From a virus (taxonomy: Duplodnaviria; Heunggongvirae; Uroviricota; Caudoviricetes): DNA of 12,458 bases. Below are positions 2,859-10,043 of this stretch, one piece after another (positions within the stretch are counted from its first letter, which is position 1; every line of letters begins with the position of its first letter). Below the pieces are notes generated by a model. It saw only the letters and a program-made list of their open reading frames with translations. It searched no databases and was not told the DNA's origin. The translations under genes were made by a program, and so were the position numbers. The stretch lies in IMG/VR virus record IMGVR_UViG_2645727562_000019. One strand, written 5' to 3'.

Positions 2859-2967
2859 TTAATCCAACCCTCTCTGAAAATTAATGCCAGCAGATAAAGC
2901 CATGCTGAAACAGAGGCCAGGAATAAGTACCATCCTGACCATTTGCTCCAGTGCCTTAGCAGCACAC

Positions 2968-3216
2968 TCATGCCGCGTTGCTCACAGGACGATATACTCG
3001 TTGCTGAACAGGAGGTTTTTTACCCTGGAACTCTGCCGGGCTTGCTGCCTGACGTTCATCAAGCCAACGCTCAACTTCATCACGGTTCCATGCGCAGCGT
3101 TTGTCAGTGATATACCAGCGTTTAGGAAATTCCCCTGCGCGCTCCATACGGTCGATAGTGCTCCATGACAGTGGCACCACCGCCAGGAGTTCCTTCTTAC
3201 CTAATGCACCTTTCAT
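2968..3216 (-). CDS. AlpA/Xis-like small DNA-binding protein (excisionase or prophage regulatory protein family)
   Basis: 82 aa; segment LLAVVPLSWSTIDRMERAGEFPKRWYITDKRCAWNRDEVERWLDER fits the AlpA/excisionase winged-helix pattern (L..V.....ST......G.FP.........W...EV..WL). SD-like GAGAGG lies upstream. Confidence 0.75.
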   Translation of the reverse strand: MKGALGKKELLAVVPLSWSTIDRMERAGEFPKRWYITDKRCAWNRDEVERWLDERQAASPAEFQGKKPPVQQRVYRPVSNAA

Positions 3217-3265: not shown

Positions 3266-4147
3266 TTACATAGATGTTTCGTTTAATTCTTCCCGACGAA
3301 CGCTGTAAACGTCGGTGGCTTTTGCCAGCAGTTCGTCATCATCTGAAAGTTTTTGTGCAATGTATTTGTAAGCCTTATCCAGTTCGGAGACAGTGCTGTA
3401 ATTCATCGCTGCGCTGGTAAAGGCCATCAGCATTTCTTCTGGATCACGGCTATCCGCTTTACGCGTTTGCTCATCATGCTTTTTCGCTGGTTTAGCGTTG
3501 ATCAGACTGTTCATTCCCGCAGCAGTAGTCGTTTGTGGAGTAATGTCTCGCTCAACGCGCGGTGCCGTTTCCTGTAATTCGTCAGGGGTGTAAACACCGA
3601 GAAGCACATCAGGAGCGTGCAGGCGAGCCCATCGTTTCGTGCAAAGATAGGCAAGCTGCTGGCGCGGATCCTGTTCCCACAATGGAGAGTTACGCACTCC
3701 GGCTTGCGCCATACTGATGGTAAGCTCACGGGGTTCTGCTTCTCCTTTAAGAACTGCTGACACAGTTACCGTCAGATTCGGTGATTTATCTGTTTTGCCG
3801 TTAACATTCGACCAGTCACCGCTCCAGCGATAATTCAGGCGTGTCGCCAGCAGGCTGGAAGAGGATACGACCGCGTTTACCAACTGTGCTTCGTAGCCTA
3901 ACGTTCCGTTTACCACATGCGTTTTCTGCGCCACGGCGAAAGGGTTCATTCCCCACTGTGCCGCCTGCATGGTCACCGCCAGGCAATCGGCAGGTTTGCC
4001 TTCAAGATGTTTCGGTACAGTCACTTTGCTTTGTGACATCAAATCCGCGAAACGCACCAGTTGATTCATGCCCTCGGGGCTGAAGATTGCCGCAGCAGTG
4101 CCTACAGTTGCGCCTGGTTGTGATGTGATTGCGATATCATTGCTCAT
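3266..4147 (-). CDS. RecT/Bet-family single-strand annealing recombinase
   Basis: 293 aa; C-terminal region NSPLWEQDPRQQLAYLCTKRWARLHAPDVLLGVYTPDE...ERDITP parallels lambda Bet (WQSHPKRMLRHKAMIQCARLAFGFAGIYDKDE...ERDITP, from memory). AGGA SD upstream; ATG 4147 overlaps the exonuclease stop (ATGA). Confidence 0.8.
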   Translation of the reverse strand: MSNDIAITSQPGATVGTAAAIFSPEGMNQLVRFADLMSQSKVTVPKHLEGKPADCLAVTMQAAQWGMNPFAVAQKTHVVNGTLGYEAQLVNAVVSSSSLLATRLNYRWSGDWSNVNGKTDKSPNLTVTVSAVLKGEAEPRELTISMAQAGVRNSPLWEQDPRQQLAYLCTKRWARLHAPDVLLGVYTPDELQETAPRVERDITPQTTTAAGMNSLINAKPAKKHDEQTRKADSRDPEEMLMAFTSAAMNYSTVSELDKAYKYIAQKLSDDDELLAKATDVYSVRREELNETSM

Positions 4148-4965
4148 ACGTACATATCCTGTTTACGTGCCCAGTCAGGGCGTTTAATAATTTCCACTCC
4201 GCCCCATTCATCGTTGATGCGGCATTCGTGATAGGTATTCAGATCCCGGCGGAACAGAGCGTGCCCGGCATCGACATCCGGCGCATCCAGCTCGAACACG
4301 CGTACCGGATACCGACCACAATCAATGCTTTCGCTCACGGCAAGAAAGAAAAAACCATGTGGCTGACCAGTAACCCTCATTGCGCCTTCGCGGTACATTG
4401 CGTCCTGCACGTGGTAGCGGAACTCCTCGATGTGGCGTGCAAAACGGTCCATATCTGCAACCTTTTTCACGTCGACGATCACGTTGTGCTCGTTCAGCCA
4501 TTTGTCTGGACGAATTCGGCACAACTCACCCGTATCTTCATCGTTCCAGTACATTGATGCTTCGCAGTAACCAGGTGCTTCCAACATCCAGCGTGCCGCC
4601 GGGTGAGCCATTGCGCTATCACGCATCAGCTCCAGTTTTCGCCACTGCTCTGCATCAAGTACCGAAATCCCCATATCCGCTACATCACGAATAAATGCCT
4701 CTTCGTCAGCTTTACCTTGTTTTGTCCGACGATCGAATTTCGGTGAAACGATGAAGCGTTTGTCAAACTCTCCAGGTTCCAGAAGCAGACAGTGCAGAGC
4801 AGTACCCATGTCCAGTTCAGACTTCTTCTCTTCGTCTTCCGGAGCAGCCTTCACCCATTTCAGAAGGGCAGGGTTCTTAGCCACCATATCTAGCTGCGAC
4901 TTACTCACGCCGTCACCGGCGTGGTAGTCCTCGTTGCTGATATCGAAATAAATTCCCGGATTCAT
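4144..4965 (-). CDS. RecE-like PD-(D/E)XK exonuclease (exodeoxyribonuclease VIII-like domain family)
   Basis: 273 aa; N-terminus IYFDISNEDYHAGDGVSKSQL is typical of the prophage exonuclease VIII-like family, with a D...VDVKK PD-(D/E)XK-like motif. Sits immediately upstream of RecT. AGAGGG SD 7 nt before ATG 4965; ATGA overlaps on both sides. Confidence 0.75.
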   Translation of the reverse strand: MNPGIYFDISNEDYHAGDGVSKSQLDMVAKNPALLKWVKAAPEDEEKKSELDMGTALHCLLLEPGEFDKRFIVSPKFDRRTKQGKADEEAFIRDVADMGISVLDAEQWRKLELMRDSAMAHPAARWMLEAPGYCEASMYWNDEDTGELCRIRPDKWLNEHNVIVDVKKVADMDRFARHIEEFRYHVQDAMYREGAMRVTGQPHGFFFLAVSESIDCGRYPVRVFELDAPDVDAGHALFRRDLNTYHECRINDEWGGVEIIKRPDWARKQDMYV

Positions 4966-5261
4966 GCCGCGTCCCTCTGCCCATCAATCTGATCAGCCAG
5001 ATCCCAGCGGGCGATAATTGCCATTGCCTCGCGCCGGTAGGCATCCATTAGTTCTTCGAACTCTGGACTGTCTTTAGCGGCCTCCAGTACTTCCTGGCGA
5101 ACGCCTTTACCTGTTACAACGTCGAAAGTTGAGGCCAGTTGATGAAGCCGGATGGTCTCAATCAGTTCAACTTGTCGGTCATATAGCTGTTCTGACAGGC
5201 GGTAGTCCTTGTCGAATGCCAGCATGATTTTTTGAAGATTTTTCTGCTGATTAACGTTCAT
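4962..5261 (-). CDS. Hypothetical protein (99 aa)
   Basis: ORF in the operon; start taken at ATG 5261 preceded by GAGGTGG (the track ORF begins at GTG 5267). Stop overlaps the exonuclease ATG (ATGA). Confidence 0.55.
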   Translation of the reverse strand: MNVNQQKNLQKIMLAFDKDYRLSEQLYDRQVELIETIRLHQLASTFDVVTGKGVRQEVLEAAKDSPEFEELMDAYRREAMAIIARWDLADQIDGQRDAA

Positions 5262-5268
5262 ACCCACC

Positions 5269-6303
5269 TCAATATTTGATATACGCGTCCTGCACTTTGC
5301 CGCCAGCGATAGCCAACATTGCTTTCTGCGCGAATTCTTCGGGAATGCCTTGGGCTATCAGATCTGCGATTACTCTGCGGTTAACGGTACGGCGATGCTC
5401 TTTATCCGCAGCTCGGCGCGCTTCTTCGTCGGCGATACGCTTCTGTTCTTCAATGCGGGCTTTTTCTGCCTCCTCTTGGCGTCGGCGTTCCTCGGCAACG
5501 GCTTCTTCTTTTTCGCGTCGTGCACGCTGCTCTGCTTCAATTCGCTGACGTTCTGCTACTTCAGCACGTGCTTTCTCTTCCGCCGCCAGGCGTGCCGCAG
5601 CATCAATTTCAGCTTTCGCTTTTTGTTCAGCTTCGAGCCTGGCCTGTTCAGCAGCTTCCCGGCGGATATTCTCTTCTCGCTCAATGCGCGCTTTTTCCTC
5701 CGCTTCTTTGCGAAGTCTCTCCAGCTCAGCGGCTTCATGCTCGCGTTTTTGAGCTACTGCGAGTGATTCTTCCAGTTTCTGGATGGTTGAATCCTTGGCT
5801 ACTCCAGCTTCTGCTGCGTACTCCTGCCAACTCTCATCAAGTGCTACTGATTTAGCCTCTTGAATTCGTTCCTGAATATCAGTTGATGGCAAGTAGTTTC
5901 CGGAGAGATCGATCACGTCAGCCAGTGCTCGCAAATTTGTCAGGCGTTGTTGCAGTGCTTCAGTGCGTAATTTCTCAGCATTTTCCCACTCGGTGAGTGG
6001 GCGGCGTACTTCATCACGAAGCCGATCGCATTCGGTTACGAGGCGTCGTAACTCTGCTTCAACTACTTTCGGCTGTTCTTTCAGGCGTTTCAGATAATCA
6101 CGTCCTGGTTTTTCTACCGCTGTTTTACTTCTTGAAACCTTCGCAGCCAGAGATGCAATGCGCTTTCTGCCTTTGTCTGTGCTAATGTCAGGCACTTCAT
6201 TAACACCTTCACGGATCTGCTCGAGAAACTTTTCCAGTCCTTTTTCAACGTAAATTCTTGGTGCCATATCTGGTGTGATTTCGATGATTGATAATTCACT
6301 CAT
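5269..6303 (-). CDS. Coiled-coil protein with an E/A/R/K-rich low-complexity segment, function unknown
   Basis: 344-aa ORF with a strong GGGAGGAGG SD before ATG 6303. The central ~120 aa are repetitive (EAEEKARIERE..., AEQKAKAEIDAAARLAAEEKARAEVAERQRIEAEQRARREKEEA). Coding potential is supported by operon context and the ATGA overlap with the upstream small ORF. Confidence 0.7.
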   Translation of the reverse strand: MSELSIIEITPDMAPRIYVEKGLEKFLEQIREGVNEVPDISTDKGRKRIASLAAKVSRSKTAVEKPGRDYLKRLKEQPKVVEAELRRLVTECDRLRDEVRRPLTEWENAEKLRTEALQQRLTNLRALADVIDLSGNYLPSTDIQERIQEAKSVALDESWQEYAAEAGVAKDSTIQKLEESLAVAQKREHEAAELERLRKEAEEKARIEREENIRREAAEQARLEAEQKAKAEIDAAARLAAEEKARAEVAERQRIEAEQRARREKEEAVAEERRRQEEAEKARIEEQKRIADEEARRAADKEHRRTVNRRVIADLIAQGIPEEFAQKAMLAIAGGKVQDAYIKY

Positions 6304-6461
6304 TTGCTAACCTCCTCCCATAGCTCGTTATCGTTGGCTACATCGCGAGCTTCTTTGCTGACGAAAGCCCACTTAATGCCTTCCTGTAAGGTGCGGAACT
6401 TCCAGCTCATGAATCCGCATGCAGTAACGCAGTACCAACCGTTGATGATTTTCCACTGCAT
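6300..6461 (-). CDS. Small Trp-rich protein (53 aa), first gene of the leftward operon; absent from the ORF track (below 60 aa)
   Basis: Manual translation of the minus strand gives MQWKIINGWYCVTACGFMSWKFRTLQEGIKWAFVSKEARDVANDNELWEEVSK. ATG at 6461 with GAGG 9 nt upstream; stop TGA 6300-6302 overlaps the next ATG (ATGA). Confidence 0.45.
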   Translation of the reverse strand: MQWKIINGWYCVTACGFMSWKFRTLQEGIKWAFVSKEARDVANDNELWEEVSK

Positions 6462-6480
6462 AACTTGTTACCTCGGTTTG

Positions 6481-6557
6481 TTACCGTTGAGGTAATAATT
6501 ATGCGTATCTGGTTTGATGTCAATAGATATGAGTTAAAAAAATTACCCGTTAGGTAA
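6481..6557 (-). promoter_or_regulatory. PL-like early-left promoter with two operator palindromes
   Basis: Minus-strand TTGACA (-35) at 6518-6523 followed by an AT-rich -10 region. TTACCGTTGAGGTAA at 6481-6495 lies between the -10 and the mRNA start; TTACCCGTTAGGTAA at 6543-6557 lies 19 bp upstream of the -35. The layout mirrors lambda OL/PL. Confidence 0.6.
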
Positions 6558-6570
6558 TCTAATAGGCAAT

Positions 6571-6592
6571 AAAAAAGCCGCCAGAAGGCGGC
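6571..6592 (-). terminator. Intrinsic terminator ending the repressor transcript
   Basis: GCCGCC-agaa-GGCGGC stem-loop (6577-6592) followed on the minus strand by a U6 tract (A-run 6571-6576 on plus), 23 bp downstream of the repressor stop. Confidence 0.7.
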
Positions 6593-6614
6593 TTACTTAC
6601 TGAAAAATATGATT

Positions 6615-7199
6615 TTATTGTTTGTTTTTTTCGTTCTGGTTGATGACAAATTCAATGTAACTTTCGATCTTTGCTTTCTCGGTTTCGGGTAACAAAGCGT
6701 AGCGCGAGCGGTCATAGTTGATAGTCGCAGGGTCGTGCGGGTGAATCAGTAATTCATAGCCGTGACGCCCGAATGCGGATGCAACATTCTCCAGGGTGGA
6801 AATGGAAACGCTGACCTCATTGTTTAACAGGCGGCTGATTGTCACCTGGGCGACGCCGGATGCGCGGTGAAGTTTTCCCTGCGTTGAAAGGTCGCGGCTT
6901 TCGCTCATCCAGCGTTCCAGGTTGTGAGCCGCCAGCTGACCAATGTCGCTTGGTCCGACAGGCTGAAAACCTTCCTGAGAAAGCGAGCGATCGATATCAA
7001 GCCAGTTACGGGGTTTATTGGCGGCAGCTTCAATTTTTCGCGCAACCTGGTCGCCGATAACCTTCTTGCCAAGAGCCCAGCGGTTTACCAGATTTGCCTG
7101 AGTTCCAAGTTTTTCTGCCATCCGCGTCTGAACACCATTGAATTCACGGTCGATCAAGTCGTTGAGATTTTGCCTACGGACGTCCTGGATACTTTTCAT
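6615..7199 (-). CDS. Prophage repressor candidate (CI-like role): two XRE-type HTH domains, no recognisable S24 peptidase/autocleavage domain
   Basis: 194 aa. N-terminal HTH-like segment VQTRMAEKLGTQANLVNRWALGKK and a second HTH-like segment LSTQGKLHRASGVAQVTISRLLNNEVSVSISTLENVASAF. Divergent from the Cro-like gene with an operator cluster between them; no obvious SD before ATG 7199. Confidence 0.65.
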   Translation of the reverse strand: MKSIQDVRRQNLNDLIDREFNGVQTRMAEKLGTQANLVNRWALGKKVIGDQVARKIEAAANKPRNWLDIDRSLSQEGFQPVGPSDIGQLAAHNLERWMSESRDLSTQGKLHRASGVAQVTISRLLNNEVSVSISTLENVASAFGRHGYELLIHPHDPATINYDRSRYALLPETEKAKIESYIEFVINQNEKNKQ

Positions 7200-7254
7200 T
7201 TTCTGGAAAATCGCCTCATATATGAATCAGTAGATGATTCAATTTAAAGCAATA

Positions 7255-7328
7255 TTACCCAACAGGTAAATGCACCCCATAGGTAACCATCCTTGATTTT
7301 TGTTACCTTATGGGTGAATATTTATTAT
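7255..7328. promoter_or_regulatory. OR-like operator cluster with PR-like promoter
   Basis: Three palindromes: TTACCCAACAGGTAA (7255-7269), GCACCCCATAGGTAA (7272-7286) and TTACCTTATGGGTGA (7303-7317). Candidate rightward promoter TTGTTA (7300-7305), 17-bp spacer, TATTAT (7323-7328), 26 bp before the cro-like ATG. Confidence 0.55.
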
Positions 7329-9609: not shown

Positions 9610-9686
9610 TTACCTGATGGGTAATAAAATATTCTAAAATCTATTGATTTCGTGTCTTATGTGGTTTTTAATTACCTCAGGGGTAA
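9610..9686 (+). promoter_or_regulatory. Third operator-controlled promoter, with the same architecture as the PL-like region
   Basis: TTACCTGATGGGTAA (9610-9624), 19 bp, TTGATT -35 (9644-9649), 22 bp, TTACCTCAGGGGTAA (9672-9686), then ATG at 9690. The gaps (19 and 22 bp) and the 62-bp operator centre spacing are identical to the PL-like region read on its coding strand. Confidence 0.55.
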
Positions 9687-9689
9687 ATC

Positions 9690-10043
9690 ATGAGAAAACA
9701 GATACAGGCTCTTGGTCGACTCAAAACAGGCCAGATGAACAAAACAGAATCTGCGTATTGCCAGCACCTTGAGCAGCGTAAACGTGCAGGGGAAATCGCC
9801 TGGTATCGATTCGAGGGTATCAAGCTGCGGTTAGCTGATAACTGCTTCCTGACTGTAGATTTTGCCGTGATGTTGGCTGACGGGCAGTTGGTGATGGTGG
9901 ACGTTAAGGGAAGTAAGTCAGTCTTTACTGACGATGCGAGAGTCAAGATGAAGGTTGCGGCAGACAGCTATCCGTTTGTCTTTCAGGTTGCTTATCCAAA
10001 ACCTAAAAAGCTCGGTGGTGGATGGGAGGTTGAGGAACTATGA
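9690..10043 (+). CDS. DUF1064-family protein (PD-(D/E)XK nuclease-like fold)
   Basis: 117 aa; pattern ESAYCQHLEQRKRAGEI...FEGIKLRL...VDFAVMLADGQLVMVDVKG...KMK fits the phage DUF1064 family signature as recalled (...AGEI...F.L...Y.ADF...VEDVKG...). Stop overlaps the next ATG (ATGA). Confidence 0.6.
   Translation: MRKQIQALGRLKTGQMNKTESAYCQHLEQRKRAGEIAWYRFEGIKLRLADNCFLTVDFAVMLADGQLVMVDVKGSKSVFTDDARVKMKVAADSYPFVFQVAYPKPKKLGGGWEVEEL

Follow-up and report, generated by a model that had tools for sequence, protein, structure and literature searches.

The closest described relatives of the small gene considered here are epsilon15 gp37 (NP_848245), phiV10 p39 (YP_512294) and phiv142-3 Orf44, all of them annotated. 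For this type of phage, a study of ZX5 confirmed both the integration site, the 3' end of guaA, and the parts played by repressor and antirepressor, and it is silent on the small open reading frame (ORF) (PMC9782041). We analysed a stretch of 12,458 nucleotides (nt) of viral DNA (record IMGVR_UViG_2645727562_000019; the whole stretch is called the window below), in which an ORF on the minus strand at 6300-6461 encodes a protein of 53 amino acids (aa) that is a full-length homologue of these three proteins (77-98% identity), with the same position, Shine-Dalgarno sequence, start and coupling to the next gene. The window protein ends in WEEVSK and members of the epsilon15/phiV10 type in WEG or WG, a difference that arises because a 344-aa gene, and not the gp36-like gene, follows in the window. 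The small ORF is a real protein-coding gene, and its N-terminal half is under unusually strong constraint.

Beyond these homologues, several small proteins of phage lambda and of the Rac prophage offer parallels in layout. Kil, cIII, Ral, KilR, YdaF and YdaG are of similar size (44-73 aa), lie in the same kind of operon and are expressed only after derepression, and Rac YdaG and YdaF stand directly behind the repressor gene, like the small ORF. None of them, however, shows sequence or profile similarity to the small protein: hidden Markov model (HMM) searches and hhalign comparisons were negative for lambda N, Kil, cIII, Ral, Ea10, Gam, orf28, orf60a and orf63 and for Rac KilR, YdaE, YdaF, YdaG, RacC, RcbA and RalR, the highest hhalign probability across these 16 proteins being 3.7%, with 0.2% each for lambda Kil and Rac KilR and no Pfam match.

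The small ORF is a conserved gene

The ORF (53 codons, ATG to TGA) encodes MQWKIINGWYCVTACGFMSWKFRTLQEGIKWAFVSKEARDVANDNELWEEVSK. A preliminary description of this locus had reported a 53-aa ORF that has a Shine-Dalgarno sequence and five Trp and overlaps the following gene by ATGA, which is what we find; the three Cys that it listed come to two on counting (C11 and C15). The protein has a calculated isoelectric point of 6.1, contains no His and holds just two Arg (R23 and R39), in keeping with the earlier remark that it is not Arg-rich. The overlap is formed by its stop codon TGA (6302-6300) and the ATG (6303-6301) of the 344-aa ORF at 5269-6303. The gene and its signals are as follows:

6300-6461, minus strand: 53-aa gene, homologue of epsilon15 gp37 and phiV10 p39 (PHROG 898), identified by profile match and substitution pattern
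6471-6474, minus strand: Shine-Dalgarno sequence GAGG of the small ORF, 9 nt before the ATG at 6461
6311-6315, minus strand: Shine-Dalgarno sequence GGAGG of the 344-aa gene, within the final codons of the small ORF (W-E-E-V)

The length of the ORF alone is no evidence, because the window has 147 ORFs of at least 30 aa; that it is more than a chance ORF follows from its substitution pattern and its match to PHROG 898. To score the former, the first 44 codons were aligned over 13 loci from Escherichia, Salmonella, Klebsiella, Enterobacter, Citrobacter, Scandinavium, Pseudocitrobacter and Erwinia dacicola. At codon positions 1, 2 and 3, respectively, 14, 15 and 35 of 44 sites varied, and the nonsynonymous to synonymous ratio (pN/pS) in the frame of the small ORF was 0.26 with zero stops, compared with 1.4-1.6 and many stops in four other frames over the same DNA. 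The antisense frame that shares its wobble positions (the plus-strand ORF at 6304-6495 in the window) gave 0.46 with 2 stops. By segment, codons 1-25 had a ratio of 0.095, codons 1-38 one of 0.20 and codons 26-44 one of 0.46; among the neighbours, measured in a subset of five phages, the repressor gave 0.41 and the gp36-like gene 0.43, with AlpA at 0.23. The ATG and a Shine-Dalgarno sequence of the form GAGG or GGGG, 6-9 nt upstream of it, were kept in 13 of 13 loci. Conservation of the reading frame in related prophages had been proposed earlier as a check on the ORF, and the in-frame purifying selection across the related loci shows that it is a genuine gene.

A contrary reading, in which the ORF arose by chance or the true gene is the antisense ORF (6304-6495, plus strand) as annotated in phage Tyrion, can draw on annotation: the Tyrion annotators placed their ORF, of 70 aa, opposite to the small ORF, and an E. 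coli genome identical to the window leaves the small ORF uncalled. We regard it as practically negligible, for the sense frame is open at every locus with its Shine-Dalgarno sequence and ATG conserved, and the frame-by-frame ratios and stops refute an antisense gene, the frame annotated in Tyrion having a pN/pS of 1.42 with 4 stops and that of the window the value and the stops given above. In the Tyrion record the opposite-strand ORF is placed at 2905-3117 (minus strand) and the gp37 homologue at 3001-3150 (plus strand) is omitted; the annotated ORF is probably a misannotation, because its frame is non-coding by substitution pattern and carries stops in relatives. An RNA element was also considered and dropped, as Rfam had no match anywhere in the window and the folding of the RNA does not surpass that of shuffled sequence (z=-0.72).

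The match to PHROG 898, a family of unknown function, has an E-value of 1.1e-37 and aligns residues 1-49 with positions 1-49 of the 50 in the profile; all 38 relatives that we aligned match it as well. An exhaustive profile search of 1.8 billion representative sequences found 19 relatives, one of which (P0032, 1929 aa) is a tandem-repeat artefact and was rejected, and a profile search of 5.8 billion proteins returned 64 clusters at 90% identity, in which every source name given belongs to the Enterobacterales. Conserved positions of the family are M1, W3, G8, T13, G16, S19, F22, W31, A32, F33 and A38, so that only W3 and W31 of the five Trp are broadly conserved. C11 and C15 are invariant in close relatives and appear as Y/S, F/S, H/S or I/S in distant members. 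In one natural variant, from E. coli (P0001, 59 aa), nine residues within the second strand of the small protein (WYCVTACGF) are duplicated in tandem and in frame.

First cistron under repressor control

Between the small ORF and the repressor gene, the window contains a compact control region. Its elements, together with the repressor gene itself, are:

6615-7199, minus strand: double helix-turn-helix repressor gene, whose product matches phiV10 p40 at 100% identity and is a homologue of epsilon15 gp38
6575-6594, minus strand: strong intrinsic terminator of the repressor transcript, with a GC-rich stem of 8 bp and a T run behind it, also annotated in phiV10
6543-6557, no strand: operator palindrome TTACCCGTTAGGTAA, upstream of the -35 hexamer and 62 bp from the other operator
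6495-6523, minus strand: early-left promoter (the equivalent of PL), with -35 TTGACA at 6523-6518, a 17-nt spacer and -10 AATTAT at 6500-6495
6481-6495, no strand: operator palindrome TTACCGTTGAGGTAA, covering the final base (6495) of the -10 hexamer

Two perfect TTACC-N5-GGTAA palindromes flank and overlap the early-left promoter. A scan of the window for TTACC-N5-GG(G/T)(A/T)A with one mismatch allowed gave 14 strand hits against 1.45 expected, a number that 0 of 200 shuffles reached. The hits form three pairs, located at the early-left promoter, at the divergent repressor/cro promoters (7255 and 7303) and at 9610/9672. The epsilon15 record annotates three repressor-binding sites, which are ATTACC-N5-GGTAAT palindromes at corresponding positions, and the second of them corresponds to TTACCGTTGAGGTAA. 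Epsilon15 and a Klebsiella relative likewise have a promoter of the layout TTGACA-17-GATTAT. The leader of the small ORF is about 27 nt long and is taken up by the operator and the Shine-Dalgarno sequence. By this arrangement of promoter, operators and leader, the small ORF is the cistron that opens the early-left transcript under repressor control, and as such it is silent in the lysogen and among the earliest products after infection or induction. The preliminary description had likewise made it the promoter-proximal gene of the leftward operon, in the position that lambda gives to N, and the TTGACA-17-AATTAT promoter at 6523-6495, the palindromes and the repressor terminator upstream agree with that placement.

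Several observations concern the control elements in their own right. The helix-turn-helix regions of the repressor span residues ~21-61 and ~106-147, and the protein is only ~42% identical to epsilon15 gp38, yet the operator half-sites (TTACC/GGTAA) are identical in both phages. The third pair of perfect TTACC-N5-GGTAA palindromes (9610-9624 and 9672-9686) has the same 62-bp spacing as the early-left pair and falls in the interval from the end of the P-like replication gene (9572) to the start codon ATG of a 117-aa ORF (9690-10043), an arrangement that suggests a third repressor-controlled promoter at 9610-9686. In epsilon15-type relatives the leader between promoter and small ORF measures ~95 nt, as against ~27 nt in the window. 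Within this long leader (at ~2913-2971 of locus L004 in epsilon15 and at 2940-2953 of locus L005 in the Klebsiella phage) there is a short GC hairpin, with a third operator over the Shine-Dalgarno sequence, and in the Klebsiella phage the hairpin is followed by a U run (CCACCAACGGGTGG TTTTCT). From its sequence, this hairpin, which is absent from the window, could be an attenuator.

Source prophage and distribution

A region of 2.1 kb around the small ORF is 98-100% identical to E. coli chromosomes, where it belongs to a prophage integrated adjoining guaA. The prophage encodes, in order, an integrase, a phosphatase, an MT-A70 methylase, PerC, AlpA, RecT, a nuclease, small genes and the double helix-turn-helix repressor, followed by a divergent cro-like gene and DnaT-like and P-like replication genes. 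A tblastn search with the small protein hit 36 phage records, mostly Uetakevirus podoviruses, among them phiV10, epsilon15, TL-2011b, ZX5, SPN1S, SPC32H, Tyrion and Klebsiella and Enterobacter relatives. By gene content and relatives, then, the element is a Uetakevirus (epsilon15/phiV10-like) prophage with a lambda-like immunity layout and not a classical lambdoid phage; the lambdoid identity implied in the preliminary description has to be given up.

The preliminary description also called the ORF unannotated. This is correct insofar as the ORF fell below a 60-aa cutoff and is uncalled in one genome 100% identical to the window; it does not extend to the databases, as RefSeq holds the exact 53-aa sequence as WP_187470042.1 ('hypothetical protein') and PHROG 898 holds the gene. 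A copy at 98% identity is annotated as WP_001198619.1, and the DNA of the small ORF is present in 558 of 5426 complete E. coli genomes (~10%), most of which annotate a hypothetical protein there. The novelty of the gene is low, because both the gene and its family are already catalogued.

Gene order and mosaicism

An order common to 19 of 19 loci runs from the cro-like gene and the repressor through the operators and PL to the small ORF, the recombination module and AlpA. The genes that follow the small ORF directly vary, and two of them are present in the window:

5269-6303, minus strand: gene for a 344-aa predicted coiled-coil protein (PHROG 1376), with translational coupling to the small ORF via ATGA, absent from this place in phiV10 and epsilon15
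4962-5267, minus strand: gp36-like gene (PHROG 856), which comes directly after the small ORF in phiV10 and epsilon15

The next gene is gp36-like in phiV10, epsilon15 and the Klebsiella relatives; the 344-aa coiled-coil gene in the window, phiv142-3, Citrobacter and Serratia; and a 550-aa RecE-like gene at one metagenomic locus. Two Hafnia relatives have a 94-aa gene there, in one copy with a precomputed Pfam match to GamL (PF28165). In most loci the stop of the small ORF overlaps the next gene by 4 nt. The C-terminal tail of the small protein occurs as WEEVSK, WEG, WG or GVSK, and these variants coincide with the junction and the ribosome-binding site of the next gene; the tail changes with the gene that follows because the Shine-Dalgarno sequence of that gene sits in the last codons of the small ORF. 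Identity of the small protein is 68-84% between loci whose repressors share 41-45% and whose gp36-like proteins share 46-53%, and in several loci the nuclease/exonuclease and RecT are replaced by non-homologous types.

Some of these exchanges can be followed at single loci. The 344-aa gene sits between the gp37-like and gp36-like genes, and its copies in phiv142-3, Citrobacter and Serratia are 48-99% identical; it is a mosaic cassette, translationally coupled on its upstream side. E. coli 602687 is 100% identical to the window over 5200-7300 and has a different nuclease/RecT pair, namely a YqaJ-type nuclease and a 340-aa RecT (3835-5766 of that locus) in place of the 273-aa PD-(D/E)XK nuclease and 293-aa RecT of the window (3266-4965), which shows that the recombination module has been exchanged between otherwise near-identical prophages. 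On a Hafnia-type metagenomic contig (L019, 4240-4524), the 94-aa gene with the GamL match follows a 326-aa gene behind the small ORF, and BLASTP found no similarity between its product and the gp36-like protein of the window. GamL is the phi80-type family of anti-RecBCD proteins (PMC12315714), and because of this match the variable genes that separate the small ORF from the exonuclease may mark a seat of anti-RecBCD genes.

Predicted fold and remote homology

With 38 diverse sequences, AlphaFold2 gave a beta-beta-beta-alpha fold with a predicted local distance difference test score (pLDDT) of 78.2 and a predicted template modelling score of 0.53, in which strands cover residues 2-6, 9-14 and 18-22 and a helix residues 25-52, the confidence dropping in the tail. 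This run supersedes one with 16 close sequences, which yielded an uninformative all-helical model (pLDDT 54.7). A Foldseek search of the model against the PDB and viral models returned nothing with E<0.001. The three-stranded sheet with one helix resembles MmoD, AP2, the N-terminal domain of HicB, YegP/UPF0339, T7 gp1.2 and the core of the double-stranded RNA-binding domain (dsRBD) in fold only: identities are 2-21%, there are no common motifs, and the functions of these mini-domains are unrelated. The fold does not point to a function, because such a generic mini-fold serves protein binding and nucleic-acid binding alike.

Sequence-based searches with the small protein were no more specific. 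Pfam and NCBIfam scans gave nothing meaningful, no defence-system model of PADLOC matched, and a sequence search of the PDB produced chance matches only. When the 38 relatives were scanned with Pfam, a sub-threshold match to DUF2985 was judged compositional or weak and was discarded. PF24184, a phage zinc-binding family, matched 7 of the 38 relatives weakly (best E-value 0.0011) and the window protein not at all; two individual matches that we inspected scored at most 15.1 bits, the gathering cutoff being 27. Rac YdaE, a zinc-binding protein reached through this lead, proved unrelated.

Possible functions of the small protein

The reading that we favour, and to which we give an even chance, is that of a small early binding protein with a conserved, probably host, target, acting as an early accessory at the head of the recombination module. 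Its product, as modelled, would be small and soluble, with three strands forming a sheet against one helix and an acidic tail under little constraint; it would have neither catalytic nor membrane features and would most likely act by stoichiometric binding to a conserved macromolecule. Residues 1-25 are near-invariant across phages of Escherichia, Salmonella, Klebsiella, Enterobacter and Citrobacter, and a conserved host component would be a likelier partner than a neighbouring phage protein because these residues stay constant while the repressor, the gp36-like protein and the exonuclease/RecT types change. A conserved host target may thus be the most economical explanation of the small protein, and we rate it at even or a little under. 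The protein would then be an early host-directed accessory factor heading the recombination module, and no N-type antiterminator. The preliminary description had put forward an effector of the Kil-like or anti-defence kind; this is plausible, and the negative comparisons with Kil, cIII, Ral, KilR, YdaE, YdaF and YdaG neither confirm nor refute it, while the very strong constraint on residues 1-25 beside diverging or exchanged phage neighbours would suit a conserved, possibly host, target. Three points weigh against this view. Good conservation is seen in AlpA and the cro-like protein as well, so a conserved phage partner is possible; the folded core is net positive and its fold is like that of several nucleic-acid-binding modules, so the target may be DNA or RNA; and a literature search, whose reach did not include the epsilon15 genome paper, found no publication or experiment on the small protein.

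The net charge and the fold lead directly to an unlikely, though by no means negligible, alternative, namely a minimal nucleic-acid-binding regulator whose sheet and helix sit on phage DNA or RNA in the manner of AP2, integrase N-terminal domains or dsRBD-like modules, and which would tune early transcription, excision or recombination. Somewhat less probable again is an accessory of the recombination module itself that would protect linear DNA ends or modulate RecBCD or SSB, in a role like that of P22 Arf/Abc or lambda Gam. The small ORF always heads the Exo/RecT module, and in one Hafnia relative a gene with a GamL match lies between it and the exonuclease; this adjacency may, however, only mirror operon order, the small protein has no similarity to lambda Gam, and unrelated types of nuclease and annealing protein take each other's place around a constant small protein, which therefore cannot be matched to any particular recombinase.

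The remaining readings, like the non-coding and antisense ones dealt with above, are all disfavoured. The ORF could be a translated leader that does nothing but load ribosomes onto the downstream gene by coupling, its peptide being functionless, as the 4-nt ATGA-type overlap in most loci and the position of the next Shine-Dalgarno sequence in its tail would allow; yet a pure leader would not keep its sequence from Escherichia to Serratia, codons 1-25 have a pN/pS of 0.095 though half of the synonymous sites differ (pS ~0.5), and the fold is predicted with confidence, so that we hold this to be very improbable. Equally improbable is a mini-protein stabilised by zinc or a disulphide through its CxxxC pair: C11 and C15 are invariant in close relatives and 7 of 38 members show the weak sub-threshold PF24184 matches, whereas the protein offers two Cys and no His where four Cys/His ligands would be expected, the inspected matches fall under the cutoff, YdaE is unrelated, and the Cys pair is lost in distant relatives and is therefore no pointer to a metal or disulphide site. 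The slimmest chance among these goes to an N-type or other processive antiterminator for read-through of the early-left operon, already thought unlikely in the preliminary description. The likeness to lambda N is one of position only (first gene directly downstream of a repressor-controlled leftward promoter), while the small protein, with its two Arg, has no Arg-rich RNA-binding motif; the ~27-nt leader leaves no room for the boxA/boxB of a nut site, and Rfam gave no match; no minus-strand intrinsic terminator that would have to be overcome was detected between 6460 and 1260; there is no Pfam match, and both hmmsearch and hhalign against lambda N were negative. Moreover, lambda N is intrinsically disordered, whereas the small protein is predicted to be a folded sheet plus helix.

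As a sequence feature the gene is ordinary, its product being listed in the databases as a hypothetical protein and its phage genus well studied, and automatic annotation at this locus is inconsistent: some RefSeq genomes lack a call for the ORF, and in Tyrion the call is on the wrong strand. It is nevertheless a cheap and reasonable candidate for functional screens of small phage proteins, on the grounds that it is expressed first on derepression, that its N-terminal half is tighter than every neighbour tested and that it stays fixed while the following genes shuffle. Going further than the host-directed accessory factor favoured here, one might speculate, at clearly less than even likelihood, that gp37/PHROG 898 is a class of immediate-early host-directed inhibitors, the first product of derepression in Uetakeviruses across the Enterobacterales; they could act on a conserved host nuclease or a defence hub, or else on the machinery of replication, division or transcription, and the near-invariant 25-residue N-terminal sheet would be the interaction surface.

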